32,000 nt of DNA from assembly GCA_000025185.1 (NCBI GenBank), contig CP001848.1, positions 2,880,001 through 2,912,000 on the forward strand. Direction: 5' to 3'. Shown piece after piece: positions 3,490-32,000 of this stretch; position 1 is the stretch's first letter; every line of letters starts with the position of its first letter. A program made the translations under genes and the position numbers. The stretch is from Pirellula staleyi DSM 6068. GTDB taxonomy: Bacteria > Planctomycetota > Planctomycetia > Pirellulales > Pirellulaceae. Below the pieces are notes generated by a model, which worked only from the letters and a program-made list of their open reading frames with translations, made no database searches and was not told the origin of the DNA.

Positions 3490-3576
3490 GGCAAGCGACT
3501 CGCTATCGAAAATGGGTGGTATTTCTAGTGGATATCTTGCGAAACATGCCCAGCAATGCGGACCGATGCAAAGTGG

Positions 3577-9535: not shown

Positions 9536-9582
9536 GTGGGAGCGTGGCCGTGCCCGCAGGATGACGAAAGGAGCCAATCACC

Positions 9583-10692
9583 GTGGTCATGAAGATCGAT
9601 CGCGATGCGCAGCGATTCAAGGAGATTGTGCGCGGACGCATTCGCGACAACTTGAAAAAGTACATCACGCACGGCGAAATGATTGGCCGTAAAGGGGGCG
9701 ATCTCGTTTCGATTCCCCTCCCCCAGCTCGATGTCCCGCACTTCAAGTATGGCAAGAATGGCCGTGGTGGAGTTGGTCAAGGGGATGGTGAAGTAGGGCA
9801 GCCTGTCGCGCCCGGTGAAGGGGAGGGAGATGCGAGCGGCAAGGCGGGTGGTGAAGCGGGCGAGCATGTGCTGGAAGTGGATGTTTCGCTCCAAGAACTG
9901 GCGGAAATCCTCGGCAGTGAGCTGAAACTTCCCAAGATTGAGCCGAAGGGGCGCGCGAGTATCACCCAAGAAAAAACGCGTTACAACAGCATCCGCCGCG
10001 TGGGTCCCGAATCGCTCCGTCATTTTCGCCGCACCTATGTCGAAGCACTACGGCGTCAGCTCTCCGAAGGCTCTTATCGCCCCATCGATCCCCGGATTGT
10101 GCCGATCAAAGAAGACCGGCGTTATCGCTCGTGGGAAAGCACCCCCGAGCCACAAGCGTCGGCGGTGATTCTCTACATGATGGACGTTTCGGGGTCGATG
10201 ACCGACGAGCAAAAGCAGATCGTTCGGACCGAAGCGTTTTGGATCGATACCTGGCTGCGATCGCAGTACAAGGGGCTCGAGCGGCGCTACATCATTCACG
10301 ACGCCGCTGCCAAAGAGGTCGACGAGCATACGTTCTATCACACACGCGAAAGTGGTGGCACGCGCATCAGTTCGGCCTACAAGGTGGCTGTTGACCTGAT
10401 CGATCGGCAGTTCAGTCCCAACGACTGGAACATCTACTGTTTTCAGTTCAGCGACGGCGATAACTGGGGAGACGATAATCGTCAGTCGCTCAGTTTGCTC
10501 CGCGAAAAATTGATCCCCAGCAGCAATCTGTTTTGCTACGGCCAGGTCGAAAGTCCCTACGGAAGTGGCGAGTATTATCGCGTGCTCGAAGAGGCGTTTG
10601 GGGAAGAGCACGACCGCCTGATCCTCTCGGAGATTGAAAACAAAGAGGGAATTTACGCGTCGATCAAAACGTTCCTCGGACGGGGAAAGTGA
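9583..10692 (+). CDS. yeaH: YeaH/YhbH family protein (DUF444, VWA-like)
   Basis: 369 aa. The GTG at 9583 lies 9 nt after an AAAGGAG Shine-Dalgarno sequence; an in-frame ATG at 9589 is an alternative start. It has a MIDAS-like MMDVSGSM motif and a glycine/acidic-rich loop. Its position directly after prkA is the conserved arrangement. Confidence 0.9.
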
Positions 10693-12218
10693 GGCCCGCT
10701 GTGCAGTCGCTTCATCGGTTTCGCTCACTCACGCCACAGCTCGTCGAAGTTCAGCGGCAAATGGAGGAGCATGCCCGCAACTATGGGCTCGACTTCTTCA
10801 CCACCATCTTTGAGGTGGTCGATGCCGATCAACTGAACGCGATCGCTGCCTATGGTGGTTTTCCGACGCGCTATCCCCACTGGCGATTTGGAATGGAGTA
10901 CGAGCAGCTGAGTAAAGGCTACTCCTATGGTCTGCAGAAAATTTATGAGCTCGTGATCAATAACGATCCATGCTACGCCTACCTTCTTGCCAGCAACATG
11001 ATGACCGATCACAAGCTGGTGATGGCCCACGTCTATGGTCACTGCGACTTCTTTAAGAACAACGAGTGGTTCAGCAAAACCAATCGCCGCATGATCGACG
11101 AGATGGCCAACCATGGGAATCGGATTCGGGACTACATGGATCGCTACGGTGTCGAGGAAGTCGAAACGTTCATCGACTCGTGCCTTACGATCGAGTGGCT
11201 GATCGACATTTACTCACCCCACATCAAACGCCGAAGCACGGTGCTGCAAAGCAGCATGATGGCGGAGCAAGAGGAGGTGGCAGGTCCCACGGCGACCCGT
11301 TTTCAGTCGAAATCGTACATGGATTCGTTCGTGAATCCCCCCGCTGCCATGCACGAAGAAATGGAGCAAAAGCGGCGAGATCTCGAGCGCAAAGAGAGTT
11401 TTCCGAGCGAACCGATGCGCGACGTCATGCTGTTCTTGCTCGAACATGCGCCGCTGAAACCTTGGCAGCACGATGTGCTGGCGATCATCCGGGATGAGGC
11501 GTATTACTTTGCGCCACAAGCTCAAACCAAAATCATGAACGAAGGGTGGGCCACCTATTGGCACAGCACGATCATGACCCGTCACGGGATCGAACCTGCT
11601 GACCTGGTTTGTTACGCCGATCATTGCAGCGGCACACTCGCCGGATCACGCACACGCCTGAATCCGTACAAGCTAGGGCTTGAGCTGTTTCGTGATATCG
11701 AAGATCGCTGGAATCGTGGCGCTTTTGGCGAGGATTTTGATGCGTGCGATGACTATCGCGAGAAAAAACATTGGGACAAAAAACTTGGGCTTGGACGGAA
11801 GAAGATTTTTGAAGTTCGAAAAGTGCATAACGATCTGACGTTCATCGATGAGTTCTTGACCCTCGATTTCTGCCGCGAGCATAAGCTCTTTTCGTTCGGG
11901 ATGAACAAGGAATCAGGCTACTACGAAATCGAAAGCCGGCAGTTTGCCGAAGTGAAGAAGACGCTGCTGTTCAATCTGACCAACATCGGCAGGCCGATCA
12001 TTTATGTGAAAGATGGAAACTATCGGAATCGAGGAGAGCTTTATTTAGAGCATCGTTACAGCGGCGTCGAACTCGATACCAAGTACGCGCAAGATACGCT
12101 GACGAATTTGCATCGCTTATGGAAGCGACCTGTCCACATCGAGACGGTGACGAGCGACGTGGTGACGGTGCATTCGTTCGATGGTCGCGAGCATGCGAGT
12201 ACGTCGACCAAAAAGTGA
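10689..12218 (+). CDS. spoVR: SpoVR/YcgB family protein
   Basis: 509 aa. The start GTG overlaps the yeaH stop (GTGA), suggesting translational coupling; GTG 10701 is an alternative start. Conserved blocks: [29 protein letters not shown]. Confidence 0.9.
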
Positions 12219-12247
12219 GCCGTCCGGCGCTCAGGAGCGGTTTTCCC

Positions 12248-12724
12248 ATGAATATCCGATTGCAGATCGACCAGGAACTAGCCGCAGCGGCTCAGGTGGG
12301 TGGTCCGGCACGCATTGAAGTGCCGCTCGGATCGGGACGTGTGATTATGGAGTTGCTGGCGGTCGATTCGATTGGATGTGGTCTCGATTTTCTCTGCTAT
12401 GAAACGCCCACACTAGCGCATGCTTCGATTCCCGATCTGCAGAAGATTGCGACCAAATTGCAGTCGCTTGTGAGTTATTTGTTCGAGCCGATTGGGCTGT
12501 TGGAGATCGATCGCGAGGCGTGTGTGTTGCAACTCCGGTCGATGCCCCCCGATCACGATCTGGAATCAGTGCGCTACTACGAACTTTGGGTGCGCAAAGG
12601 GGGAGAGATTGCTCTGACCCGTTATCGAAAAAGGCGAGGCAAAATGCGCGAGCGGATCGCCGCGCAGCTGACTCGCGAGGTGGTCAGCCGACTGGCACAT
12701 GATTTTGTTCGGAGCACGCAATAG
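12248..12724 (+). CDS. Hypothetical protein, possible fourth gene of the prkA operon
   Basis: I chose the ATG at 12248 (MNIRLQIDQE...) because the longer ORF from 12119 overlaps the spoVR 3' end. It is 158 aa, same strand, 29 nt after the spoVR stop. I recognise no motif. Confidence 0.5.
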   Translation: MNIRLQIDQELAAAAQVGGPARIEVPLGSGRVIMELLAVDSIGCGLDFLCYETPTLAHASIPDLQKIATKLQSLVSYLFEPIGLLEIDREACVLQLRSMPPDHDLESVRYYELWVRKGGEIALTRYRKRRGKMRERIAAQLTREVVSRLAHDFVRSTQ

Positions 12725-12732
12725 CAGCCTAA

Positions 12733-12765
12733 GCTCCCTTTTTTAAGCGTGGTGCGAAAGGGAGC
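12733..12765 (+). terminator. Hairpin after the prkA-cluster genes (possible terminator, non-canonical)
   Basis: GCTCCCTTT (12733-12741) and AAAGGGAGC (12757-12765) are perfect reverse complements with a 15-nt loop. No T-tract follows, so the assignment is weak. Confidence 0.3.
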
Positions 12766-20104: not shown

Positions 20105-21094
20105 ATGGCACCACCGGGAAAAGAACTCGCGCCGCAAGTTGTCGCTGCCTGTTTGGCGGGGGCTAGTGAAGCGTCGTCGTCGTTTGCTCGTTGCCTAGGG
20201 GCATCGATCACTCTCGCCCCGTCGGACTGTTTTGATTATCACGTCGGATCACCGCCGCAAGCCATGCAAGAGGCTGGACTTGCGCTCGTGCTGCATCTCG
20301 ACGGCGGCGCTGCCGTGGTGCTCATTCCCGAGTCGACCGGCCTTTTGCCCGACTGGTATCTTAAGCCCGACGCCACCGGTGAAAGCAAGCTCGCCACGCT
20401 GGCCCAAGAGCTCGGCATGGTGCTGCTTCCCGAAGAGCAGATGCCGCTCGATTTTGCAGCGGGAGCGGTGGCTGACTTGGCCGGTGCAGTCGAGCGCGGC
20501 GGTGCCGGGGCCAATTCATCGTGTGTGCCGCTCGAAATCACCGGGGCCAAAGGGGGGAGCATCTTTTTGCTATGGCCCCTCTCCAGCCCCGCGCAGGTAA
20601 TTCCCCCGAAGCCAGCCACTCCAGCACCACCCGCTGCGAAGCCTGCCGAGCCCAAAGCCGTGGAAACGAAAGCGGCTGAGAGCAAGGCCGCAGCTGTTGC
20701 AGCGCCTGTTCCACCACCCTCGTCAGCAGCCGATCCTGGGGCAGGCTTACGCTTTGCTTCGCCGCCGCCGAGCGACAACGTCGAAGAGCGCATCTATAAG
20801 CTTCCCCCATACACCCGGAGCATTTTGCGCATCGAAGTGCCGGTGCGCGTGACACTCGCCACCACACAGCTGCCACTCAAACGGATTGTCGAACTCGGAC
20901 CGGGCTCGATCATTCAGTTCGAAAAGCCATGCGACAGCGAACTCAGCTTGCAAGTGGGCGAGCACGAAGTGGCGATTGGTGAAGCAGTGAAGGTGGGTGA
21001 AAAGTTTGGGCTCAGGCTTACCTCGATGGTGATGCCCCCCGAGCGATTCTTCGCCGTGCGGGGGAAACGTGTCGACCCTAATAAGAAGCCGTAA
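20105..21094 (+). CDS. FliN/FliY-family protein (C-terminal SpoA/FliN domain) with a Pro/Ala-rich linker
   Basis: I chose the ATG at 20105 (MAPPGKEL...) over the longer ORF from 19994. The C-terminal ~80 aa (ILRIEVPVRVTLATTQLPLKRIVELGPGSIIQFEKP...VGEHEVAIGEAVKVGEKFGLRLTSMV) matches the FliN/SpoA pattern. A PA-rich low-complexity linker is encoded at about 20600-20760. Confidence 0.65.
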   Translation: MAPPGKELAPQVVAACLAGASEASSSFARCLGASITLAPSDCFDYHVGSPPQAMQEAGLALVLHLDGGAAVVLIPESTGLLPDWYLKPDATGESKLATLAQELGMVLLPEEQMPLDFAAGAVADLAGAVERGGAGANSSCVPLEITGAKGGSIFLLWPLSSPAQVIPPKPATPAPPAAKPAEPKAVETKAAESKAAAVAAPVPPPSSAADPGAGLRFASPPPSDNVEERIYKLPPYTRSILRIEVPVRVTLATTQLPLKRIVELGPGSIIQFEKPCDSELSLQVGEHEVAIGEAVKVGEKFGLRLTSMVMPPERFFAVRGKRVDPNKKP

Positions 21095-21096
21095 CG

Positions 21097-22062
21097 CTAA
21101 GCGATCAAGCTCCGCAGCGTTCGCAAGTTCACCACATCCCAAGGCTCTTCGTCGGCATCTTCCTTGGGAGTTTCCAGGTACATCGGCACCTTCGTGAAGC
21201 GCTTGTCGTTCAGCAAGTGACGAAACGGCTCGAGCCCCAAACATCCTTGCCCGATATGCTCGTGACGATCGACGCGGGAACCGAGTTCCTTTTTGCTGTC
21301 GTTCAGATGAAACGCGCGGATGCGATTAATTCCCACCGCGTTCTCGAGGCTCTCGAACGTAGCGTCGAATTCTTCTTTCGTGCCGAGGGGATAGCCGGCT
21401 GCAAACGTGTGGCAGGTATCGATGCAGACTCCGAGCCGATCGGCCTGTTTCACCTGCGCGATGATTTCGCCGAGATGCTCGAATTTCCAGCCGAGATTGC
21501 TCCCTTGCCCGGCGGTGTTCTCGAGCAAGATTTGGGCGGTGGCGTCGGGAGCGAGCGTATGAATTTTGTCGATGGCTGCGGCGATGCGCGCAAGGCCAAC
21601 CGCTTCGCTCGAAGTGGTGAACGAGCCCGGGTGCATCACGACCCCGAAAATTCCGAGCTGACTAGCGCGACCCAGTTCGATCACCATCGCTTCGATCGAC
21701 TTTTGCCACAGTTCTTCGTCGGGAGAAGCAAGGTTAATCAGGTACGAAGCATGCGCCAGCGGAAGCGTGATCTTGTGCCGAGCGAGCGCCTCCTTGAACT
21801 GCTGCTCTTCCTTGTCACTGATCGCCTTGGCCCGCCACTGGTTATTGTTTTTGGTCAAGAGCCCATCAAATTGAACGTCTGTTTTCTTTGCTCGACTTGC
21901 CTGAACGAAAGGCCATTGCGAGGGACTGCCGGTAAAAATCTGAACGACATCACAACGGACGTTCGCTGCGGCTTCCGCCGCTTTGTGAAGTCCACCAGCA
22001 ATCGACATGTGTGCGCCCAGCAAAGTCACGAGATCGGTCCACCATTTTTGAGAAGTTTTCAA
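21097..22062 (-). CDS. nfo: Endonuclease IV (deoxyribonuclease IV, AP endonuclease family 2)
   Basis: 321 aa. LGAHMSIAGGL near the N-terminus, HPGS, CIDTCH, and a metal-ligand pattern RAFHLNDSK...DRHEHIG typical of Nfo. Confidence 0.9.
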   Translation of the reverse strand: MKTSQKWWTDLVTLLGAHMSIAGGLHKAAEAAANVRCDVVQIFTGSPSQWPFVQASRAKKTDVQFDGLLTKNNNQWRAKAISDKEEQQFKEALARHKITLPLAHASYLINLASPDEELWQKSIEAMVIELGRASQLGIFGVVMHPGSFTTSSEAVGLARIAAAIDKIHTLAPDATAQILLENTAGQGSNLGWKFEHLGEIIAQVKQADRLGVCIDTCHTFAAGYPLGTKEEFDATFESLENAVGINRIRAFHLNDSKKELGSRVDRHEHIGQGCLGLEPFRHLLNDKRFTKVPMYLETPKEDADEEPWDVVNLRTLRSLIA

Positions 22063-22197
22063 GGAAAGGCTCGGGTTTGCGAGCTAGCAACGCTAAAAAG
22101 GTCCCTGCGAATCAACTCCGAAAATAGCAGTCGTGAGCATCCGCAGCACCGATACCGAGGTTGTTCCATAATTTTCGTCGGAAGGAAAGTAGTAGCG

Positions 22198-22890
22198 ATG
22201 ACTACCGAATACGACTATGTCGACGCCTACGAAATGGCGTGCGCCGCAATCAGGCCCGCAGATCCGACTGTTTACATCGAGCCGATTTCGAAACTGACAA
22301 AGAGGGATCGAGTCGCAATCGTCTGCCGCGTTTCACTAGATAAGCAGTCTCATTGCCTCGAAGAACATGAGGGGCAACTTGCCGCAGAAGTAGATAAAGC
22401 AGGCGCAACTTTTGTCAGGGTATTTTCTCGAGTCACGTCCGGTTGCCACTCTGACTGGCTTCGAAACGTTGCAAGGAAAGCGAGAGCGGCAGGAGCTAAC
22501 GTGCTGCTGGCACGTGACACCTCCCGTTTCGTCAGGCACCCCAGCTTTCACCTGACCAAGAGGCCATCACTGTTGCCCCGAGCCGAGGACTTCGAGCGGG
22601 CCAAGGCCAATGCAGATGGGCTCCGCTTGATGACCCTCTTTGCGCCAGACGCTCCAATCGATGAAATTCGCCTTAGGCGTACTCGAAAGAAGGCAGGTCG
22701 TAAGCCTAAACGACGAAACAAGCCGAACCATAGACAGGCCTACGCGATTGAAAAGGTTACGTGGGCGCGACGTCTAGGAATGAGGAGTGTTAGAGAAATT
22801 GCCAAGTTCCTGGAACGTCCACCGTCCACTATCCAGGGTTGGTTGAAGCAGTACGACGAACATTTCGAGCAGCTTTGTCGGCAAAATTAG
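22198..22890 (+). CDS. Divergent resolvase-like (serine recombinase N-terminal domain) protein with a C-terminal HTH-like segment
   Basis: The ATG at 22198 lies within the long 21217-22890 ORF, whose upstream part is antisense to nfo. RVAIVCRVSLDKQ resembles the catalytic RVS..Q block, and ANVLLARDTSRFVR resembles the vlv..lDRlsR block. A basic stretch and MRSVREIAKFLERPPSTIQGWL (HTH-like) lie at the C-terminus. This is a motif-level call only. Confidence 0.5.
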   Translation: MTTEYDYVDAYEMACAAIRPADPTVYIEPISKLTKRDRVAIVCRVSLDKQSHCLEEHEGQLAAEVDKAGATFVRVFSRVTSGCHSDWLRNVARKARAAGANVLLARDTSRFVRHPSFHLTKRPSLLPRAEDFERAKANADGLRLMTLFAPDAPIDEIRLRRTRKKAGRKPKRRNKPNHRQAYAIEKVTWARRLGMRSVREIAKFLERPPSTIQGWLKQYDEHFEQLCRQN

Positions 22891-22928
22891 CCGGGGTGTA
22901 CGAAGTTTTGTCGCAAGACTTGGTGAGG

Positions 22929-22967
22929 AACGCATTTCACACTGAAAATTCTGCGACGAAATGCGTT
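22929..22967 (+). other. 10-bp inverted repeat/hairpin downstream of the resolvase-like gene
   Basis: AACGCATTTC (22929-22938) and GAAATGCGTT (22958-22967) are perfect reverse complements with a 19-nt loop. No T-tract follows. An AT-rich stretch follows before the next gene. Confidence 0.3.
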
Positions 22968-23099
22968 TCGGGCTCCACAGAATTCAAAAAGGGATTCATG
23001 ATACTATGTTATTTCTTATTTACTTCGTTCTGAGCAACTTTTCTTTAGCGATTCCTTCAGCGGACATCGAGTTTACAAGTTCATCAGGGTAGGCCTCTC

Positions 23100-23840
23100 A
23101 TGGCAAAGCAATCCAGTGGTCGATGCAAGTCGCTCAAGTCTGCGTACTCGGTTTTCAACAAGGGCATTCAGACCGCAAAGCGAATTTACGGTCCGGCGAG
23201 TAAGTGGCTCGAATACTCCCACGAGTCGTTTAGCGACAAGTCTTACCATCCGAGAGTTGCAGAGAAAGTTATCGGACTTGCTTTTTTGAGCATGGTGGCA
23301 GCGTGGGAAGAGTTCGTCGAAGAAGTTTTCCTCGGCTACATGGCTGGTGCAACAACTCCAGATGGCTACGCTCCAGAACTAATGATTGGGAAATGCCAGA
23401 ACAAAGTTCATGCGATGCAGGTTCTGGGGGCAGCCGTGAATGGCGATCCTGCACGGGCTCTAAAATGGAGTGACTGGCCCTGGGTTTCGAATGTCGCGAA
23501 AGTCCACTTTAAGTACGGTGCACCATTCACCTCATTGCCGAAACTTTACCTAGAGCGACTGAAGGACGCCCAAGGGATACGCAACCGAGTGGCCCACAAC
23601 TCGGCAAAGGCAAAGAAAGGTTTCAAGACACTCGTAAATCGACTAGTTGGCGAAACTGACAAGAGCCCGCTTCCCAAAGGCATGGCCCCTGGAACGTTGC
23701 TTGCCTGTGAGCCGGAAGCCGGGCTTTTTCCTGTGTTCACAATCTGTCCGATCGATGACTACGAATGGCCAGATTTCTTTTGCAGCTATACTTCGCTGTA
23801 CCTCGAAGCAGCTTCCCTCCTGATTCCAGTGGAGCACTAG
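23100..23840 (+). CDS. HEPN-motif protein (Abi/RiboL-PSP-HEPN-like putative RNase)
   Basis: 246 aa. An R-x4-H motif with Asn after the Arg (RNRVAH, nt 23580-23597) sits in a predicted helical context (LKDAQGIRNRVAHNSAKAKKGF). An upstream AAWEEFVEEVF helix resembles Abi-type HEPN families as I recall them. No search was run. Confidence 0.5.
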   Translation: MAKQSSGRCKSLKSAYSVFNKGIQTAKRIYGPASKWLEYSHESFSDKSYHPRVAEKVIGLAFLSMVAAWEEFVEEVFLGYMAGATTPDGYAPELMIGKCQNKVHAMQVLGAAVNGDPARALKWSDWPWVSNVAKVHFKYGAPFTSLPKLYLERLKDAQGIRNRVAHNSAKAKKGFKTLVNRLVGETDKSPLPKGMAPGTLLACEPEAGLFPVFTICPIDDYEWPDFFCSYTSLYLEAASLLIPVEH

Positions 23841-24070
23841 GGGCTGAGTTAAGGAGATCCCCCTCTGACGATAGACTGGCTTGTTGAGTGACGAACAAAC
23901 GCCATCGGAGACGACCTCTCCTCGTTCGCTCCTAGCTCTCATGCGTTCAAGCGACTCGGAACTGCATGAGATGCTTGCAACGCTTCTCCTTCAAAATTCA
24001 AGGCTACCAGGAGTCTTGATGATTTCAGTGAATCGGCGTATTCTCGGGCATACCTAATCAGGAGGGTAAT

Positions 24071-24991
24071 ATGTCAGAAGTAGAAGCTGCTCAAATGCTT
24101 CAAGAGATGATCGACAAGCACTTTCGACAAACTTTGGAATGCGCCAAAAAAGTAATTGCTTTGTCTGCTCGGTCTGCGAACGAAAGCGATAGAAGGGATA
24201 CCTACATCGCACTCGCTAAAGCTACGACTGACTACCTGAGCTTTTTGCCTGAATCCCAGAAGCCATCGTGGCTTAAACAGATCGACCTCGCAGTCAAGCG
24301 GGCGGCAAACGAAATCCACAGTCAGGATAGGTGCTACGGACTCGCAGAGACAATAGCAGAGAACTATCACAAAATCACTAGGATCCAGCTAAGAATGCCT
24401 TCTGATACGAAGGTATTCAATTTTGATGAGATATTCGCGGAACTTAAGCGAAAGCATAATTTAACAGAAGTGTTTGATAGGCTCGCGGAAGAGATGCTGC
24501 AGATTCTGGCGACAAACGAAATTGATAGTGTCACAATAACAGATGTCCTCAATGAGATTATCGCCGTCCTGAAGGCCAATCGTGATGGATCGCCAGTAGC
24601 TATGAAGGGATCGGTTTCTACTGCAAGGTTCGGCTGGAATATAGCCTATGAGTTCTTGAAGACATATGTCCCGGGAGTTCAGCCAATTGCAGACGGAATT
24701 GACCGAACACTAAATGAGTGTGAGGAAAAGTTAGAGCAGATCGAAAATGGCTTTAATTCGCAGGTAACTATCGCTTTGTTGGATTCCGTAAAGTCTCTCG
24801 CTTCAATGCAAGCAAAAATGGCAAAGGATGTCGAATACTTGGCGGACTGTATGAAGAACGGAAAAATTCTAGTGATCGAAGGGAGGTGTTCGTCAGTGCC
24901 CGGCGTGTTGCAACAACAGCTCGGCAATGTCTTGGGCATCGACTACTCACAAAGTGAATCTAGCGATAGTAAGGAACTAGGCAAAAGCTAG
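24071..24991 (+). CDS. Hypothetical, predominantly helical protein with no recognisable motif
   Basis: 306-aa ORF with an AGGAGGG Shine-Dalgarno sequence 6 nt upstream of the ATG. GC is very low relative to the core. Heptad-like Leu/Ile/Glu-rich stretches suggest an alpha-helical or coiled-coil fold. Confidence 0.6.
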   Translation: MSEVEAAQMLQEMIDKHFRQTLECAKKVIALSARSANESDRRDTYIALAKATTDYLSFLPESQKPSWLKQIDLAVKRAANEIHSQDRCYGLAETIAENYHKITRIQLRMPSDTKVFNFDEIFAELKRKHNLTEVFDRLAEEMLQILATNEIDSVTITDVLNEIIAVLKANRDGSPVAMKGSVSTARFGWNIAYEFLKTYVPGVQPIADGIDRTLNECEEKLEQIENGFNSQVTIALLDSVKSLASMQAKMAKDVEYLADCMKNGKILVIEGRCSSVPGVLQQQLGNVLGIDYSQSESSDSKELGKS

Positions 24992-25060
24992 TTTAGATTG
25001 CAGTACTCAAGGAATTTTATGCATGCCCTAGGGCGATCTCGGCTTAGTTTTTTATGGGAG

Positions 25061-26521
25061 CTAGCTGCGTCCTAAGTAACTATCAATTAGTCGCATAATC
25101 TCAGAAGCCAGTGCTTCTGCGGTGCTTTCGTCAAGGCAAAATTCAACTAAATAGGACATCCCACTCGCGGATCGTAGCGTGCCGTCCAGCTTCAGCTGCC
25201 TTTCGATAGCTAGCAGTAGTTCGGAATCTGTAGGGTGAATGTTATTCAGTGTTGTGTTTGAAATTGCATCTTTAAAGAAGCTATCCGGAAACAATTCGAT
25301 GATTTTCTGAGCGGAAAGTAGCTTTAATGTGGTTGGGCTCAAGTTGATTATGTATACGCCATTCGCAATGTCTCTGATTTTCTTTGGTCTGTCACCTTTG
25401 GGTTCATCGTCTATCAAGAGAATGTAGAGGCGATCGCTTTGCACGAGTAATGAAAACAGTCTTTCTGAAGCGCTTGCAGAACCAATTGAGATGGTAGCTA
25501 CGCTCTTCACGCCTAGTTTTTTTGCAAGATCTAGGTGCCTGATTACTTGGTCAATCAAGAGTTCGTCTGTCTTGCCTTCGACTAGAAGGCAAACTTCCAG
25601 GTCGGCACGATTGCGATTGGGCTTTTGTGGCGCGAGTTCTTTTTGGGTTTTCTGGGCTGCAGCGAATCCTGAATAAAACCGTTCAATTCCCGGTATTCTT
25701 CCAACTCTAGGAAAAAGAGGTTTCCAGCCATTGCCTGTCCCCCAAATTATAGGGAGTGAGACATTGGGGGTGTTATGCCTAAACGCAAGCAAAGCTCCAA
25801 CGTTTCCAAATCCTAAATCAGATCTAGTGCAGCACCGATTGTAGTACTTTAATCTGTCAAGGTACTTTTGCCTGCTCGCATGATCAAGTCCGTCGTAAAG
25901 TGTTGCATCGAGAACGCTCGCTGTATCCAGGTTCGTGTATGTATATGCAGAGAAAGTGTGTGCTGCTGTAGTGCTTTCGACCTTCGATACGCCGTCCGAG
26001 AATCCACAGATTGAGAGTACAAAAACATTCTTAATACCCAGAGCCGTTGCTTCCTCGATTACCTTATTTGCTTCTCGTGATGCAGATTCGCCAGTCCCTA
26101 TTACGTCGTCAATTAAAACCACATTTACAACTTTTCCAGATCGAAGATTAACCTCCCAGTTCTCGTCAGAGAAGTTTCCCTCTGGCAGTTCATTAACAAT
26201 GCGAAACTCGTAGGCAACCATCGCACCACTTTTGCCAACATCTCCAATCGCTGCAAACAAAGTGTTTTCAGTAGTAATCTTGGCATCGCGATCAACGGCT
26301 TTTCTTTGAAGTCGGGTGTACGCAATTGATAGTCCACTTCTGATCTCTTCTGGGCCAAGTACATTCAAGTGTTGAACAACGCGACTAGCTAGTTCATAGT
26401 CTGTCGGGTCAAACTGAAGGATCCAGTCTACTACTCTCTCAAACTGAACTGTAACCGACCAGCACTTGACGATTGGTTCAAGTTTTTCAAGGAGCGGTCT
26501 GACTTCGCGAGGGAGCATCAT
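25061..26521 (-). CDS. Fusion protein: phosphoribosyltransferase (PRTase) domain plus a C-terminal TOPRIM (DUF4435/OLD-like) domain
   Basis: 486 aa. A PRPP-binding loop VVLIDDVIGTGES is encoded at 26084-26122 (minus strand), with four hydrophobic residues, then DD, then the TG.S phosphate loop. TOPRIM signature: LLVEGKTDE (25562-25588) supplies the conserved Glu and ILLIDDEPKGD (25391-25423) the DxD. The gene lies in the lowest-GC part of the window. Confidence 0.7.
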   Translation of the reverse strand: MMLPREVRPLLEKLEPIVKCWSVTVQFERVVDWILQFDPTDYELASRVVQHLNVLGPEEIRSGLSIAYTRLQRKAVDRDAKITTENTLFAAIGDVGKSGAMVAYEFRIVNELPEGNFSDENWEVNLRSGKVVNVVLIDDVIGTGESASREANKVIEEATALGIKNVFVLSICGFSDGVSKVESTTAAHTFSAYTYTNLDTASVLDATLYDGLDHASRQKYLDRLKYYNRCCTRSDLGFGNVGALLAFRHNTPNVSLPIIWGTGNGWKPLFPRVGRIPGIERFYSGFAAAQKTQKELAPQKPNRNRADLEVCLLVEGKTDELLIDQVIRHLDLAKKLGVKSVATISIGSASASERLFSLLVQSDRLYILLIDDEPKGDRPKKIRDIANGVYIINLSPTTLKLLSAQKIIELFPDSFFKDAISNTTLNNIHPTDSELLLAIERQLKLDGTLRSASGMSYLVEFCLDESTAEALASEIMRLIDSYLGRS

Positions 26522-26542
26522 GGCGGTATATCGTGGTTTGAT

Positions 26543-26675
26543 TTGGTGTAGGTTTAATTGGTGATATTAGAGAGTTTAGTTGGTGAGCAAATACTTTGGA
26601 AGGTTTCTTCTTGAGTAACGGTGATATGGCAGGGCAGGGTCTACCCTCTGCCATCTATCGCATCGGTCCTCTGCC
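26543..26675. repeat. Cluster of short repeats in the divergent control region between the PRTase-TOPRIM gene and the resolvase operon
   Basis: TTGGTG occurs at 26543, 26558 and 26580. GGTGATAT occurs at 26560 and 26620. An imperfect hairpin ATGGCAG...CTGCCAT spans 26626-26654, with an inner GGG/CCC stem. CCTCTGCC occurs at 26645 and 26668. Confidence 0.35.
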
Positions 26676-26753
26676 GTGAGTCTCTCTAGCACTCGCGAAA
26701 ACAATACCTCTCTTTTGCCCGAGAGTTTCTAGCGTCAAGTCGCTTTCCCCGTT

Positions 26754-26779
26754 CCCAATTCTACAGAATTGGGTTGACG
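26754..26779 (+). promoter_or_regulatory. Perfect palindrome abutting a -35-like hexamer upstream of the small ORF/resolvase operon (operator or recombination-site candidate)
   Basis: CCCAATTC-TACA-GAATTGGG (26754-26773) has 8-bp perfect arms and is followed immediately by TTGACG (26774-26779). I could not identify a convincing -10 element. Confidence 0.35.
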
Positions 26780-26842
26780 CCTCCCGGTAACGGGCCCTAG
26801 CGTGTAGTGGTCGGATGTTCACTACGCAAAAGGAGCAGGCAG

Positions 26843-27148
26843 ATGTCAGCGAAGAAATCGAAACCCGTGAAGAAAGTCGACAGCACCCCAGCCCCAGCGA
26901 GCAAACGCGAATCGCGTCGAATCACGATCCTGGGCTTCTCCGCCACTTCAATGCTGAAATGGATGGGAATGAACGGGTGGACCCGCGAAGCCGCTGTAAA
27001 AGCCTTCTGCGGGCTCTCAGAGGGTGGAGAACTCGCTCCCTCGACGATCAGCACGGGTTTGAGCGACGGACGGAACCCAAAGTATCGCAAGGGGGCCGCA
27101 ACTCCCTCAGCCGCTCAGGTCAAGCAACTCAAGGCAGCAGCGAAGTGA
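26843..27148 (+). CDS. Small basic hypothetical protein upstream of the resolvase (possible accessory DNA-binding or directionality factor)
   Basis: ATG at 26843 is preceded by AAAGGAG (26829-26835). It is 101 aa. Third codon positions are strongly G/C-biased in this frame, which supports it over the overlapping open extension of the resolvase frame. It ends 8 nt before the resolvase ATG. Confidence 0.55.
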   Translation: MSAKKSKPVKKVDSTPAPASKRESRRITILGFSATSMLKWMGMNGWTREAAVKAFCGLSEGGELAPSTISTGLSDGRNPKYRKGAATPSAAQVKQLKAAAK

Positions 27149-27156
27149 GGAACGTC

Positions 27157-27843
27157 ATGCAATCGAAACGAGTAGAAGCGTTTGGCTACGTTCGAGTATC
27201 AGGGAAGGGGCAAGTAAAAGGACATGGCCCCACGCGACAAAAGGAAGACATTCAGCGTTTCGCAGAGTCGCAAGGATTCGAAGTAGTGCGAGCCTTCGAG
27301 GATGCGTGGTCGGGCACGGAAGCCGATCGCCCCGCGTTTGTCGAGATGCTCAGCACGATAATGGGCGGCGGGCCTCGTGTGGTGATTGTCGAATCGCTCG
27401 ACCGTCTCTCGCGTGACCTCATGATTCAAACGCAGTTGCTGGCGAAGCTCGTCACTGAGGGCATTCGCTTGATTGCTGCGAATACGGGTGAGGATGTCAC
27501 TGCTGCGATGCAGGACGATCCCATGCGCCGTGCGATGATTCAGATTCAGGGAGTGTTTGCAGAACTCGATAAGTCGCTTCTCGTCCGCAAGCTACGCAAG
27601 GGACGCGAGAGCAAGCGGCAGTCCCAAGGCAAGTGCGAGGGGCGTAAAGCATTCGGCGAGAAACAAGGCGAGCAAGCGATTGTTGCGAGGATGCTCGAAT
27701 TGCGACGCAAGCCAAAAGGTGGTGCCCGTCGCTCGTTTCAAACAATCGCTGAAATTCTCAACACTGAGAAATTACCAACGCGAACAGGGCGTCCTTGGTC
27801 TGGCTCCACGGTTGCCGCAATTATCTCGCGTTCTCGGTGTTGA
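27157..27843 (+). CDS. Small serine recombinase (resolvase/invertase family)
   Basis: 228 aa from the ATG at 27157. FGYVRVSGKGQ contains the catalytic Ser. VVIVESLDRLSRD is the conserved DR..R block. A C-terminal HTH-like SFQTIAEILNTEKLPTRTGRPWSGSTVAAII is present. Confidence 0.9.
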   Translation: MQSKRVEAFGYVRVSGKGQVKGHGPTRQKEDIQRFAESQGFEVVRAFEDAWSGTEADRPAFVEMLSTIMGGGPRVVIVESLDRLSRDLMIQTQLLAKLVTEGIRLIAANTGEDVTAAMQDDPMRRAMIQIQGVFAELDKSLLVRKLRKGRESKRQSQGKCEGRKAFGEKQGEQAIVARMLELRRKPKGGARRSFQTIAEILNTEKLPTRTGRPWSGSTVAAIISRSRC

Positions 27844-27928
27844 GTTTTGAATTAGGAGGTATTAAGTTCGCACGCTATTGCACCACAGATAGTGGTCAGA
27901 TGTACCCTAGATAGCGAGCGAATGGGTC

Positions 27929-28294
27929 ATGGCTAAGTCCCGAGAACAACAACCAAAGTCGGTAGCAATTCCTGAGAAGTTTGTGCCTCAGTTCTGGGAT
28001 GCTGTAGACGGACGTTGCGGGATCGTGAAAGAGATTCGACGCCGCTACGAAATCTTGAAGCAGGACGCAGGCGTCGAAAGTTATCAAAAAGACCTGCTCT
28101 GCCAGCGTGCAATCTTTATCGGCGTGCAACTCGAAACCATGGAGTGCATCGCCGCCGCTGAAGGCAAGTTCGATCCCGGCTGCTATACGCAGATGGTGAA
28201 CGCTTTTTCTGGTCTTCTCTCGAAGCTCGGCCTCGAGCGTCAGTTTCCCAATCGCAAGACGCTCAAGGCCTATGTGCAGGAGCTTGAGGAATGA
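27929..28294 (+). CDS. Putative terminase small subunit (assigned by position only)
   Basis: 121 aa. Its stop overlaps the terminase large subunit start (ATGA at 28291-28294). I recognise no sequence motif; the call rests on synteny. Confidence 0.4.
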
Positions 28295-29688
28295 ACATCA
28301 TCGAAGCGATTAAGGACGAGAACTTGCTTGGCTCGTTTCTCGGCGCAGATACCGAAAGTTGGTGGAACTGGTTTGCCGCCCTTCGTGTTCTGTATGGATT
28401 GAAGCTGAATCGCAATCGCCGTGGTCTTCTCGCGAGCTGCACGGGGCGAAATCCCCACAAGTTGCCAGACGACGGTTTCAATACAGCACTTTTCCTCACG
28501 GGGCGTCGGTCAGGGAAAAGCCGGATTGCCGCTGTTATCGCATCCTACGAGGCTGCACTTGCTGGCCGCGAGTCTCGACTATCGACTGGCGAGCGGGGCG
28601 TGGTGGCAGTGTGTGCCCCGACAAAGTACCAAGCTCGCGTCGTCAAGGACTACATTCGCGGTTGCTTTACCTCGCCAATGCTAAGCGGAGAAGTCACCCA
28701 GGAAACACAGGAAGGGTTTACCCTCGCCAATGGTGTTCGCATCGCAGTTCTCGCGGGCGACTGGCGAACGATTCGCGGCTATACGCTTCTCGCTGCAATT
28801 GTCGATGAGGCTGCATTTTTCGGATACGACGCCGAAAGCAAAGTCAAAAGCGATACCGAGCTCATCCGAGCGATTAAGCCGGGGCTCGCCACCGTAGGTG
28901 GAAAGCTCATCGCCATCAGCAGTCCTTACGCTCGCAAAGGTTGGTGTTTCAAGACGTACCAACGAAACTTCGGCAACAACGAAGGAAAGACTCTCGTTTG
29001 GAATTGCCCATCGAAAACGATGAATCCAAAGCTGCCGCAAAGCGTGATTGATGAGGCACTCGCGGAAGACCTTGCCTCAGCGAAAGCCGAATACCTCGGA
29101 GAGTTTCGCGACGATGTCAGTTTGTTCCTGCCGCGTGAGGTGGTTGCGAAACTTGTTGTGCCAGGACGCTACGAGCTTTTGCCAAACCAGAAGCATCGCT
29201 ATTTCGGCTTTGCCGACTTGAGCGGCGGGCGTTCGGACGATGCTGCACTTGCGATTGCTCATCGCGAAAGTCGGGTTGTCGTTCTCGATTACCTGAGGGT
29301 GTGGAAAGCCCCATTCAATCCGCAGTTAGTCGTTCTCGAAATGGCTCGCGACTTGAAGCGTTTCGGACTCCCGAGAGTAACAGGCGATAACTACGCCGCC
29401 GAGTTCGTGAACCGAGCCTTCCGAATGGAAGGAATCAACTACTTCAAGAGCGAAAAAGCCAAAAGCGAACTCTATGGCGAACTATTGCCACGCCTTTGCT
29501 CAGGCGAAATCGAGTTGCTCGATAACGAGAAGCTCATTTCCCAAATTGCAGGCCTTGAGCGAAGAACCCGCAGCGGCGGCCGTGACATCATCGACCACCC
29601 GCCGAATGGGCATGACGATCTTGCAAACGCAGTTGCGGGAGTTGCGGAACAGGCTTTCAGAAAACATCTGGTTATCGGTTCTCTCTAG
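28291..29688 (+). CDS. terL: Phage terminase large subunit
   Basis: 465 aa. Deviant Walker A-like LTGRRSGKS, Walker [12 protein letters not shown], and RNaseH-like nuclease residues (FGFADLSGG and a C-terminal [15 protein letters not shown]) typical of TerL. Confidence 0.88.
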
Positions 29689-29711
29689 CTTCGAAAGAAA
29701 GGAATGCGACT

Positions 29712-30191
29712 ATGCCAACAGTCAAGGAAACTATCGATGCGTTCGACCGCCAAAACGGGAATGAATGCATTCGAATTGGCGACTGGCTCTATTTCTCCAA
29801 CGGCGCAAAACGTGACGCGAATCCCTACGGCGTTCTGTACGATCCGCCTTCCGATGAATTCCTGCGGTTGAAACATATCGAGATGTACCGCGAGGAACTT
29901 TTGCGAAGGGCAATCAATGCTCTGGAGCGGCAGCGGGAAAACTTTCTCGCGGAAATCAGTTTCGCGGTTAACCACGGCTATCACCCGCCCTACTCGCAAG
30001 AGGACGTAAAGCAGGAACTTGAACCGCTTATCAAGGAAGTTCGTCGCCTTCAGCGACACTTGCGAGAAATTCAGCGGAAACTTGAAGCGATGCCCAGCGA
30101 AGTTGAGAAACGACACGCCGAAGCGTCGCGAGCTTTCAACCGCAGTCAGGGCGAAAGTGTGCTTGCCGTTCTTCGGTCAATCAAAATTTAG
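29712..30191 (+). CDS. Hypothetical phage-module protein (helical/coiled-coil C-terminus)
   Basis: 159 aa. ATG at 29712 follows a purine-rich GAAAGAAAGGAA stretch. It lies between terL and the DUF2213-like gene and is far too small to be a portal. Confidence 0.55.
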   Translation: MPTVKETIDAFDRQNGNECIRIGDWLYFSNGAKRDANPYGVLYDPPSDEFLRLKHIEMYREELLRRAINALERQRENFLAEISFAVNHGYHPPYSQEDVKQELEPLIKEVRRLQRHLREIQRKLEAMPSEVEKRHAEASRAFNRSQGESVLAVLRSIKI

Positions 30192-30230
30192 TCATCCCCC
30201 GTGGAACCGTTTTGGCGAAGAGGTATTGCC

Positions 30231-31064
30231 ATGAGTTTGCAGAATCTAACTTTCAACCTGGGTGGTCGTATTCGGTACGAAACACTTGAAGGACGCGACC
30301 ACATTGTGGTGCCAACGGTGATGATCGTCGAAGGCGTTTTGGCGGGGAACAGTGGCCCTCTGATGTATCCGGCTGCAGAACTCGCAGCAGCGCCTCAGGT
30401 CTGGAACCACAAGCCCATCGTGATTGGTCATCCAAGCGAAGGAACTGCCTGCCTTCCTCACGTTCTCAACAATCGGAAGGTCGGAATCATCCTCAACACT
30501 CGTTGGGATGCACCGAAGCTAAGAACCGAGGCGTGGATTGACGTAAAGCGGTGCGATGGACTGGACAAAAGCATCATCGACAAGTTGCAGAGATTGGAAA
30601 AAATCGAGGTTTCAACCGGACTCTACACCGAGAACGAGCCTTCGCCTGGCGTTTGGAACGGAAAGAAGTACGAGGCGATTGCCAGAAACTATCGTCCCGA
30701 CCACCTCGCGATCCTCACCAATCAGGTTGGTGCCTGTTCGATTGCGGATGGGGCAGGAATGCTTCAACTCAACAGCGAAGATGGCACGTTATCGCGTCGG
30801 CAGATCAATGCAGCGTTACAGCTTTTCGACCAATACGACCGCATGATGAATGGTCCACCCGTATTCCTTCCCGAGATCATGCAAGCGATTCGCCGGGATC
30901 CCTATACGTATCTGACGGGCGGGCTGTCAGCAATCGAAGTGGCGAATGCAGATGCACCGGAGCTATATGAAGCGCCCCGGCTCGAATTCGAAAACCCGCT
31001 TTCTCGAGGTCAGTCGTCTTCCGCATCAGATTTTGCGGATATTGACTTCGAGGAGGTGAATTAG
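30231..31064 (+). CDS. DUF2213-like phage protein (putative prohead protease/scaffold-type)
   Basis: ATG 30231 lies 7 nt after GAAGAGG; the ORF track's GTG at 30201 is an alternative start. It is 277 aa. NHKPIVIGHP and YRPDHLAILTNQVGACSIADGAG resemble the DUF2213 conserved blocks as I recall them. The C-terminus is acidic. Confidence 0.45.
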   Translation: MSLQNLTFNLGGRIRYETLEGRDHIVVPTVMIVEGVLAGNSGPLMYPAAELAAAPQVWNHKPIVIGHPSEGTACLPHVLNNRKVGIILNTRWDAPKLRTEAWIDVKRCDGLDKSIIDKLQRLEKIEVSTGLYTENEPSPGVWNGKKYEAIARNYRPDHLAILTNQVGACSIADGAGMLQLNSEDGTLSRRQINAALQLFDQYDRMMNGPPVFLPEIMQAIRRDPYTYLTGGLSAIEVANADAPELYEAPRLEFENPLSRGQSSSASDFADIDFEEVN

Positions 31065-31190
31065 GAAGGGCTTCAGACCGCTTCTGCGAGCGTTTCTGCA
31101 ATCTAGCGACGCGAGAGCAGGAGAGAGCCATTCCTGAGGGCTCTGCGAGGGTTTAATCGCGAATCACCTGGACGTATAACGAATCACTCG

Positions 31191-31273
31191 GGCGGCACTG
31201 CTAGGAAGTCATGAGCCTAGCAGGGCAAACAATCCCCTAGCCGGGTTTGCCAGCCGCCTTTTTTCTTTCTTTG
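31191..31273 (+). other. Three-way-junction structure followed by a T-tract (complex terminator, small RNA 3' end or recombinase site)
   Basis: The outer stem is GGCGGC (31191-31196) with GCCGCC (31253-31258). It encloses hairpin 1, CTGCTAGG-10 nt-CCTAGCAG (31198-31223), and hairpin 2, GGCAAAC-14 nt-GTTTGCC (31224-31251). TTTTTTCTTTCTTT (31259-31272) follows directly. Confidence 0.4.
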
Positions 31274-31300
31274 AATCGGCTAGGGAAAGGCTAGGAAATC

Positions 31301-32000
31301 ATGGCAAATGCGAATGGCATCAAGCGTCTGTCCAATAGTAGGTTTGACGTCGTTTTTATACGTAAGAGCACGCAAAGCCAAGACGTAACAGGGCAAATTG
31401 CAAATGTCGAAAATATGCTTGCCGAAAAGAGCCTTGTGATCCCTAAGGAGCGGTGGTTCGTCTGCACAGTGACACGGGCTAAGGTTCGTTCTAACCCTGA
31501 CTTCCAAAAACTAATGGAGCTTATTTCGGAAGGAAGAGTTGGGACGGTATACATTGAGTCGCAAGACAGATGGGGAACAGGACACCTCAGAGAACTGTAC
31601 ATACTCCTCGAGTTGCTTTCGGAACATGGCACTGGACTGTATGACCTTCGGGGCAAGCTTGATCTTACGGAGGAAGATGACCTCACTGAAATGCAAACGT
31701 TCCTGGGCGGAATTCGTTCTAAGAAAGAGCGTAAGGATATTTCCTACCGCTCGCTAAGAACACGACTAAATAACTTCCGTGAAACGGGGACTTGGCCGAC
31801 AGGAACACATCCTTTTGGATACGGCAAGCGATGCTACAGCCCTAGCGGAAAAATACTGTGGGAGTGGCAGCCGGTAAGTCGATCTCGTGGTCAGGTTTTC
31901 TATCCAAGCAAATCGGGAAAGAAATTGATAGCCGGCCAGGAGAATGTTCGTATCCCGTCCAAGGGCAAGTTGGACAAGAGTGCATCGTCGCGTGATCGAA
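31301..32000 (+). CDS. Large serine recombinase (integrase-type), N-terminal part; continues beyond the window
   Basis: This ORF is absent from the ORF track because it has no stop in the window. I translated it by hand from the ATG at 31301: MANANGIKRLSNSRFDVVFIRKSTQSQD... (catalytic Ser block), TVYIESQDRWGTG (DR block), then ISYRSLRTRLNNFRETGTWPTGTHPFGY (the start of the 'recombinase' domain typical of large serine recombinases). Confidence 0.85.
   Translation, partial: MANANGIKRLSNSRFDVVFIRKSTQSQDVTGQIANVENMLAEKSLVIPKERWFVCTVTRAKVRSNPDFQKLMELISEGRVGTVYIESQDRWGTGHLRELYILLELLSEHGTGLYDLRGKLDLTEEDDLTEMQTFLGGIRSKKERKDISYRSLRTRLNNFRETGTWPTGTHPFGYGKRCYSPSGKILWEWQPVSRSRGQVFYPSKSGKKLIAGQENVRIPSKGKLDKSASSRDR

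Follow-up and report, generated by a model that had tools for sequence, protein, structure and literature searches.

Psta_2242 of Pirellula staleyi DSM 6068, a fusion of a defence-type phosphoribosyltransferase with an OLD-like TOPRIM domain, as a candidate single-gene anti-phage cassette

Psta_2242 and its two domains

The window analysed here, a stretch of 32,000 nucleotides (nt) from Pirellula staleyi DSM 6068 (contig CP001848.1, positions 2,880,001 to 2,912,000), carries on its reverse strand the gene Psta_2242, in which a phosphoribosyltransferase (PRTase) domain of the PRTase-CE class is fused to an OLD-like TOPRIM domain (Table 1). The open reading frame (ORF) starts with ATG and runs uninterrupted over 486 amino acids (aa), and its translation was 100% identical to the NCBI entry Psta_2242, labelled 'hypothetical protein' there and 'phosphoribosyltransferase' in UniRef. 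By alignment, its N-terminus is in register with the N-termini of homologs. The gene is monocistronic and convergent with an ORF of 306 aa, and is preceded by about 280 bp of non-coding DNA, beyond which a divergent ORF begins. A scan of the region between 24900 and 27200 for promoters and terminators gave fewer sites than shuffled sequence and was hence uninformative. The claim of the initial annotation that the gene lies in the lowest-GC stretch was correct: nowhere in the window is the GC content lower than in this gene, at 45.2% (42.5% at third codon positions) versus 56.5% in the chromosomal part.

The same annotation had read two signatures in this polypeptide, a PRTase loop for binding phosphoribosyl pyrophosphate (PRPP) and a C-terminal TOPRIM signature, and both domains were recovered by profile search as well as by structure search. 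PF24390 (PRTase-CE) matched at 129.2 bits against a gathering cut-off of 27 (E = 3.2e-37), covering profile positions 2-253 of 253, and PF24395 (OLD-like_TOPRIM_1) matched at 204.8 bits against a cut-off of 27 (E = 9.2e-61), covering positions 1-162 of 162. The three motifs quoted for the two halves, the PRPP loop, LLVEGKTDE and ILLIDDEPKGD, translate exactly at the positions of Table 1. The AlphaFold2 model, built on 19 homologs, was confident (mean pLDDT 84, pTM 0.80). Searching the PDB with this model by Foldseek gave, at the top, two OLD proteins, from Xanthomonas and Burkholderia, matched in their C-terminal regions (6njv and 6nk8; probability 1.0, TM score on the target 0.45-0.50), and uracil PRTase (UPRTase) and orotate PRTase (OPRTase) folds were also among the best matches (E about 2e-3); a search of BFVD returned only generic PRTase and TOPRIM folds. 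As judged from these profiles and folds, Psta_2242 is a genuine two-enzyme gene, joining a defence-type PRTase with a predicted OLD-like TOPRIM nuclease domain.

Conservation was counted over 52 full-length members of the fusion family. The PRTase core was the best-conserved part, with a mean pairwise identity of 51%, compared with 32% in the TOPRIM core and only 18% in the helical tail (beyond aa ~397). Within the PRPP loop, T143 was conserved in at least 90% of the members, and an acidic pair followed by T-G is the pattern of type I PRTases. Besides the motif residues listed in Table 1, R107, N133, D199 and D205 of this half were also invariant. The GKSG loop would, by analogy with type I PRTases, be the loop for pyrophosphate (PPi). 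Further downstream lies a motif of retron-associated PRTases, Gx14PNNxP (PMC12746101), and the closest PADLOC model to the N-terminal half was the retron PRTase_III-A (E = 9.8e-37). Among NCBIfam models, NF053875 ('DS32_1 phosphoribosyltransferase-like anti-phage protein') matched Psta_2242 weakly, with 20 bits where the cut-off is 250 (E = 2.8e-4), pointing to another defence PRTase family that has presumably been validated.

Weak matches to UPRTase, adenine phosphoribosyltransferase (APRT), PyrE and ComF were observed near the PRPP loop, as might be expected if Psta_2242 were a housekeeping enzyme of nucleotide salvage or a ComF-like PRTase of competence. These matches were confined to the loop area, and all scores stayed far under the cut-offs: 12.5 against 233.6 bits for comF, 12.1 against 208 for upp, 13.6 against 107 for pyrE, and 12.4 against 26.3 for Pfam Pribosyltran. 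The sporadic distribution of the family, its variable context, the low GC content and the cassette behaviour described below also speak against such a role, and no salvage or competence operon was conserved around the full-length homologs at the 24 loci that we gathered for neighbourhood comparison. Profile scores and genomic context together thus effectively exclude a housekeeping or ComF-like identity.

For the C-terminal half, the generic OLD-like_TOPRIM profile (PF20469) matched with E = 2.6e-4, just short of its cut-off, and the matches to the Old and GajA models of PADLOC were marginal (E = 0.02-0.06). The conserved acidic residues of the two TOPRIM motifs make up a complete TOPRIM metal-binding set; only these metal-binding positions were conserved in the TOPRIM half, and conserved basic surface residues were not found among the 52 members. 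In class 2 OLD proteins, the region of the helical tail contributes to catalysis. The initial annotation had compared this half with both OLD-family and DUF4435 nucleases. The OLD side of this comparison was supported by profile and fold, but no DUF4435 match was detected at E<=1. The same annotation had noted that a PRPP-handling domain takes the position of the ATPase sensor with which the TOPRIM nuclease is paired in the known systems; in agreement, no ATPase family matched Psta_2242 at E<=1, and its N-terminal 272 aa belong to PRTase-CE.

A side observation concerns the motif VEGKTDE(x)FF, which recurs almost unchanged in PH0156, an archaeal protein that has not been characterised (PDB 2p62; weak DUF3226 match, E = 0.05-0.1). 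A PDB profile search with the alignment of the TOPRIM region likewise returned only the VEGKTDE motif of PH0156/2p62 (E = 0.1). This likeness hints at a wider group of TOPRIM proteins lacking an ATPase.

Table 1. Psta_2242, its domains and motifs, and the surrounding element in the window. Invariant residues and counts refer to 52 full-length family members.
Feature	Position	Strand	Evidence
Psta_2242, PRTase-CE fused to OLD-like TOPRIM	25061..26521	-	ORF, 486 aa; identity to NCBI entry
PRTase-CE domain, aa 31-272	25706..26431	-	Pfam PF24390, PADLOC PRTase_III-A, Foldseek
G-K-S-G (aa 96-99), candidate PPi-binding loop	26225..26236	-	K97, S98, G99 invariant
PRPP-binding loop VVLIDDVIGTGES, aa 134-146	26084..26122	-	Translation; D138, D139, G144 invariant
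G237-x14-P252-N253...P257 motif, common to retron-associated PRTases	25751..25813	-	Translation; G237, P252, N253 invariant
OLD-like TOPRIM domain, aa 310-475 (TOPRIM core and poorly conserved helical tail)	25097..25594	-	Pfam PF24395, PF20469, Foldseek
TOPRIM glutamate motif LLVEGKTDE (E315, D319, E320)	25562..25588	-	E315 51/52, D319 47/52 (4 more with E), E320 51/52
Second acidic TOPRIM motif ILLIDDEPKGD (D371, D372, E373; DxD equivalent)	25391..25423	-	Acidic at 371 in 49/52, at 373 in 46/52
Left arm: helix-turn-helix (HTH)/weak-resolvase ORF, HEPN-like Psta_2240, 306-aa ORF	22132..24991	+	74% nt identity to contig L034, protein matches, Pfam
HTH/weak-resolvase ORF	~22300-22890	+	Weak resolvase match, E = 1.3e-3, and HTH
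HEPN-like Psta_2240	23100-23840	+	RiboL-PSP-HEPN below threshold, E = 5e-4; contains RNRVAH; UniRef HEPN name
306-aa ORF of no assigned function	24071-24991	+	Weak AIPR_N match
Variable cargo slot, holding Psta_2242 alone	24992..26607		Flanks of 69 bp and 86 bp; comparison with L034
Right arm: small ORF, serine recombinase, 121-aa ORF, large terminase, head-protease-like ORF	26608..32000	+	Continues past window end
Serine recombinase/invertase	27154-27843	+	Resolvase E = 2e-29; PHROG integrase/invertase
Large terminase (TerL)	28291-29688	+	PHROG TerL; matches phage TerLs
Head-maturation-protease-like ORF	30201-31064	+	PHROG head maturation protease

The cargo slot and the neighbourhoods of homologs

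Psta_2242 is the only gene in a slot of 1.6 kb between the two arms of a prophage-like mobile element. The same element was found, by way of the HEPN-like neighbour Psta_2240, on a metagenomic contig (L034), and the arms were compared over 22132-24991 and 26608-29519 of the window and 5034-7846 and 9827-12738 of L034. The left arm matched at 74% nt identity (22208-24924 against 5110-7791) and the right arm at 96.4% (26621-29519 against 9839-12738), a difference that suggests mosaic recombination. Homology stopped at about 24979/24924 of the window on the left and restarted at 26608/26621 on the right, and the sequences in between were unrelated. The slot of L034 spans 2.0 kb and holds two ORFs. 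One encodes a type II DNA methyltransferase, matched by MTase_II of PADLOC (E = 1.8e-106) and by N6_N4_Mtase of Pfam (E = 7e-43); the other is divergent, 251 aa long and without assignable family, and by sequence these two look like a restriction-modification pair with a putative nuclease. As the slot content differs between shared arms, we conclude that Psta_2242 occupies a variable cargo slot of this element as a single-gene cassette. To the left of about 22130 the two contigs diverge, with an AP endonuclease gene in the window and a Mg-chelatase-like gene in L034, indicating that the element sits at different chromosomal sites in the two genomes. The mobile and variable setting proposed earlier for this gene was borne out by this comparison and by that of the homolog neighbourhoods.

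The neighbourhoods of full-length homologs varied, and no neighbour gene was common across the 24 loci, which represent nine phyla. The sole shared neighbour was a second PRTase-CE gene in the related betaproteobacterial loci L011 (Herbaspirillum, 3389-5903, reverse strand) and L020 (Massilia, 7281-9795, reverse strand), where the fusion gene adjoins a divergent PRTase-CE protein of 573-581 aa and a conserved 268-aa ORF. The genes directly beside the homologs were often those of defence or toxin-antitoxin systems: at L001 the homolog is flanked by Avs4 and PIN-TPR-GreABC, QatA/QatB stand beside it at L021, LmuC/LmuB (Lamassu) at L013, a type I restriction-modification system at L033, AbiEi/AbiEii at L005, and HicA with an IS element at L003, while McrBC, KAP NTPase, ABC-3C MC2 and CbtA/CbeA were observed at other loci. 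Most homologs lie outside recognisable prophages. The lack of a conserved neighbour, the frequent defence neighbours and the allelic cargo slot fit the initial proposal that Psta_2242 is a candidate for a single-gene conflict system.

The location of Psta_2242 inside a prophage-like element, with no antitoxin-like partner present and with a function that is only predicted, would also be compatible with cargo that serves the element instead of defending the host, for instance as an addiction or stabilisation toxin or by interfering with the host or with rival elements. We regard this alternative as quite unlikely, because the homologs are mostly found outside recognisable prophages and were absent from phage records and from IMG/VR, because their neighbours are typical of host defence islands, and because the alternative allele of the slot carries a type II methyltransferase.

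As to the other genes of the element, the initial annotation described a recombinase-rich island beside a HEPN protein, and both descriptions hold in part. The serine recombinase of the right arm is a strong match, but the recombinase-like ORF of the left arm is a weak one. Direct comparison of the two ORFs led us to reject the possibility that they are paralogs. The serine recombinase (229 aa) contains a full resolvase catalytic domain, but its 'Recombinase' domain is limited to the initial portion; since the L034 copy is equally short (228 aa), we consider it a conserved small recombinase or invertase and not a recent truncation. On the left, the element borders on ordinary chromosome, beginning with the AP endonuclease gene at 21097-22062. 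A 557-aa ORF with a GTG start (21217-22890, forward strand) runs antisense through this gene and is mostly spurious; its real part is the last 196 aa or so (from about 22300, with the HTH and the weak resolvase match), the counterpart of which in L034 is a 230-aa ORF. No transfer RNA integration site was found in the 32,000-nt window, and a search around the island for repeats of att type, direct or inverted, gave just short matches at chance level.

The HEPN assignment of Psta_2240 is backed by its UniRef name, but the Pfam match stays below threshold, one ORF lies between it and Psta_2242, and it is not a conserved partner of the fusion gene. Psta_2240 and the 306-aa ORF are kept as a pair in L034 (70% and 65% identity), and at two further loci (L035 and L036) the gene after the HEPN homolog encodes an unrelated DUF2806 protein of 310 aa; no PADLOC match was obtained for the pair. 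The HEPN-like gene and its neighbour may represent a module of two genes, the second of which varies.

The fusion family and its relation to known systems

The pairing of PRTase-CE with this TOPRIM is not confined to P. staleyi. All 20 close homologs (37-54% identity) carry the same pair of Pfam domains, and the fusion architecture is already catalogued in Pfam. Since both halves are curated Pfam families and every close homolog shares the fusion, the term 'undescribed architecture' used in the initial annotation was too strong, whereas its statement that the combination corresponds to no named defence system stood, as none was found named or tested. 'CE' stands for 'conflict effector', and a 2026 preprint coauthored by Aravind traces the term to Nicastro, Burroughs, Iyer & Aravind (NAR 2023). 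The fusion may well be listed in that computational survey too. In the survey by Nicastro et al., Calcineurin-CE, HD-CE and PRTase-CE are reportedly predicted to be immune effectors that target nucleotides. Both domain families are thus known; what is new is the presence of a defence PRTase effector and an OLD-like TOPRIM lacking an ATPase in one stand-alone gene.

Members of the fusion family occur here and there in Planctomycetota, Myxococcota, Alpha-, Beta- and Gammaproteobacteria, Chlorobiota, Spirochaetota, Bacillota and Bacteroidota, and this scatter, along with the low GC content of Psta_2242, speaks for mobility. Its hosts include Myxococcus, Photobacterium, Prosthecochloris, Leptospira, Enterobacter, Herbaspirillum, Janthinobacterium, Massilia, Paraburkholderia, Paenibacillus, Spirosoma, Flavobacteriaceae, Acetobacter, Rhizobium and Erwinia, together with one metagenome-assembled genome (MAG) of E. 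coli and several metagenomes. A search of plasmids gave relatives with PRTase-CE only and no member of the fusion family. An exhaustive profile search of 1.84 billion cluster representatives identified 3145 with PRTase-CE alone or in other architectures; its short 'TOPRIM-only' matches were fragments of fusion genes. In sampled proteins of this larger set (P0050, P0060, P0061, P0066, P0083, P0104 and P0105), PRTase-CE was located at the end of NACHT/STAND NTPases and with TPR arrays, and further partners were HAD hydrolase, histidine phosphatase, DAC (diadenylate-cyclase-like), NACHT together with FGE-sulfatase, and AAA/STAND NTPase. The DAC fusion was unexpected for an effector domain. Among these sampled architectures, TOPRIM was a partner only in the fusion of the Psta_2242 type. 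The variety of architectures (NACHT/STAND, HAD, histidine phosphatase, DAC, TPR) indicates that PRTase-CE is a modular domain of effector type.

Of this class, Psta_2242 is a full-length, above-threshold member, in which the domain is joined to another module as elsewhere in the class. The nearest sequence kin of its N-terminal half are the effectors of type III-A retrons, such as Retron-Eco11 (III-A3). Psta_2242 shares with them the PRPP loop, the G-x14-PN motif and a nucleic-acid-directed domain placed C-terminal of the PRTase. In the III-A3 effector this domain is a DNA-binding winged helix, which contacts the multicopy single-stranded DNA (msDNA) (PMC12746101). Psta_2242 differs in that an OLD-like TOPRIM takes the place of the winged helix, and in that it is a stand-alone gene with no reverse transcriptase (RT) and no recognisable non-coding RNA (ncRNA) or msDNA beside it. 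Among the ORFs located from 22 to 31 kb of the window, none with a length of 110 aa or more contained an RT domain, and RT-like matches among the neighbours of homologs amounted to 1 in 75. Scanning 21000-32000 against Rfam, which covers few types of retron ncRNA, gave no match at E<=1, and the flanks of 86 bp and 69 bp within the slot leave no space for an msr/msd ncRNA. As no RT lies near the gene or is conserved at the 24 loci, and as there appears to be no room for the ncRNA, we rejected the identification of Psta_2242 as a retron.

With OLD, Gabija GajA and the TOPRIM effectors of type I-B and I-C retrons, the C-terminal region has in common the OLD-type signature (VEGxxDE and D/E-x-D/E). 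Unlike OLD and GajA, Psta_2242 lacks their defining N-terminal ABC/AAA ATPase as well as a helicase partner like GajB. A TOPRIM polypeptide lacking an ATPase works as a defence effector in the case of PARIS AriB, but Psta_2242 carries a fused N-terminal PRTase and its TOPRIM is not of the DUF4435 type. No match to DUF4435 (E<=1) or AriB and no AriA-like ATPase neighbour was found, and an assignment to PARIS was rejected. ShosTA resembles Psta_2242 in that a defence PRTase is fused to a second enzymatic domain, which is hydrolytic in ShosT. This domain of ShosT is, however, an N-terminal pyrophosphatase (PPase)-like domain, and ShosT needs the DprA-like antitoxin ShosA, whereas Psta_2242 has a C-terminal TOPRIM and no such partner. 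ShosT of PADLOC gave no match at E<=1, the PDB chains of ShosT gave no sequence match, and no DprA-like neighbour was detected; lacking both the PPase domain and the DprA-like partner, Psta_2242 was not accepted as a ShosTA system.

The comparison with ShosT raises the possibility that the TOPRIM domain is an auxiliary phosphoesterase for small molecules, pulling the PRTase reaction forward or degrading its product. The N-terminal PPase of ShosT assists its PRTase in a parallel manner (PMC11961720), PRTase-CE is fused to HAD and His_Phos_1 phosphatases in P0061, P0050 and P0083, and the restriction of conserved TOPRIM positions to the metal-binding residues, with no conserved basic surface, would suit a small substrate. 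The whole C-terminal region of Psta_2242, however, matches the C-terminal regions of OLD nucleases in fold and profile. TOPRIM domains known to us act on polynucleotides, and an auxiliary phosphoesterase role thus appears improbable.

Proposed mode of action and its significance

From these findings we propose, with a probability of about 50%, that Psta_2242 is a horizontally mobile and self-contained single-gene conflict cassette, acting against phages or by abortive infection, with PRTase-CE as its main toxic activity. Expressed more generally, Psta_2242 is most likely a single-gene anti-phage system, of a kind already present in domain databases; the anti-phage function is what we infer. 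The model of a PRTase-CE effector with a nucleic-acid-engaging TOPRIM is drawn from the precedents of ShosT, Retron-Eco11 and Ophion and from the position of the winged helix in the III-A3 retron. The PRTase of ShosT binds PRPP, and the DD of its PRPP loop is essential for killing (PMC11961720); purine metabolism is disturbed by ShosT (PMC11961720; PMC12961424). In Retron-Eco11, phage helicases fire the PRTase effector, upon which PRPP is roughly halved and infection is aborted (PMC12746101), and in Ophion the PRTase is required for defence against jumbo phages (bioRxiv 2025.09.30.679545). By the same logic, PRTase-CE of Psta_2242, once switched on, would consume PRPP, derail the nucleotide pool, or both. 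Given the intact acidic metal-binding cluster, the TOPRIM domain is most likely to bind nucleic acid, which it would probably also cleave, and could act as a second effector, as the point at which infection is sensed, or as both. Recognition of the trigger, or auto-inhibition, would best be assigned to the fast-diverging helical tail (aa ~397-486).

The initial annotation assigned the two halves the other way round: the TOPRIM would be the nuclease effector, and the PRTase-like domain would sense PRPP or a nucleotide and gate the TOPRIM, in place of the ATPase of OLD, GajA and AriA-type systems. The PRTase of Psta_2242 does lie at the N-terminus, where OLD and GajA have their ATPase, the conserved acidic cluster makes catalysis by the TOPRIM plausible, and the finding that ShosT binds PRPP but none of the free purines tested (PMC11961720) leaves room for a ligand-binding role. 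We nevertheless consider gating by the PRTase unlikely and its direction probably reversed. In retrons and in STAND/NACHT fusions, the position held by PRTase-CE is that of an effector and not of a sensor; its active site causes toxicity in ShosT, through the DD of the PRPP loop, and loss of PRPP in Retron-Eco11 (PMC11961720; PMC12746101); and its catalytic residues are invariant in a half that is more conserved than the TOPRIM.

Another possibility is that both domains work on one polymer. The TOPRIM would hold or nick DNA or RNA, and the PRTase would move phosphoribose onto a base or an end, giving a modifying toxin with a logic like that of DNA ADP-ribosylation. Psta_2242 might then be described as a retron effector that has lost the need for a retron, with the PRTase chemistry of type III-A and the OLD-like TOPRIM chemistry of type I-B/C welded together so that the DNA or RNA captured or nicked by the TOPRIM is phosphoribosylated from PRPP; we attach a low probability to this description as well. 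Defence PRTases indeed recur with partners that bind nucleic acid (the winged helix in III-A3, the DprA-like ShosA, and TOPRIM here), and the pTM of 0.80 points to the two domains being held in a fixed arrangement. The proposal is pure inference, however, and we know of no PRTase that modifies polymers. The fusions of PRTase-CE to small-molecule phosphatases (HAD, His_Phos) point to free nucleotides as substrates. No tested purine was bound by ShosT, which would leave room for an acceptor of another kind (PMC11961720), but depletion of PRPP alone accounts for the data on Eco11 (PMC12746101). Action on a shared polymer is therefore, in our judgement, doubtful at best.

Returning to the single-gene conflict cassette with PRTase-CE as the main toxic activity, several observations weigh against it. 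Two potentially toxic activities may reside on one polypeptide and would have to be kept silent there; the effector of Retron-Eco11 on its own is not toxic (PMC12746101). The structural matches to OLD are weak by E-value (about 2e-3), and the helical tail showed no conserved residue across the family alignment. The fusion is rare, with 16 full-length clusters (50% identity) in the exhaustive profile search, and it was not found in GenBank phage records, in IMG/VR viral contigs or, with the copy of the E. coli MAG (L024) as query, in complete E. coli genomes. Literature searches returned no paper on the PRTase-CE–TOPRIM fusion and no named or tested system. Several homologs, such as that of L002, are located amid ordinary metabolic genes with no defence neighbour. 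Control ORFs at a distance of 6.5-10 kb in the same loci also held Gabija, Cas12f/TnpB and Csx1; as distal ORFs are defence-rich too, the control shows only that the loci are islands, and we claim no enrichment statistic.

Retrons, ShosTA/PsyrTA and Ophion all contain defence PRTases. For questions about the true acceptor substrate of these enzymes and the logic of their activation, the fusion family is the simplest test bed, as a single gene with two separable catalytic centres is involved, free of RT, msDNA, antitoxin and ATPase, and its rapidly evolving tail may be the sensor of the trigger. If protection from phage holds true, a compact single-gene system would be added to bacterial defence, and an OLD-type TOPRIM would be shown to work without an ATPase. 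If phosphoribosylation of nucleic acid holds true, a new modification used as a toxin would be at hand, and with it the long-missing acceptor for ShosT, the effectors of III-A retrons and OpnC of Ophion. For the Planctomycetes, in which almost no defence genes have been studied, the allelic cargo slot of this element is a place to seek more of them.

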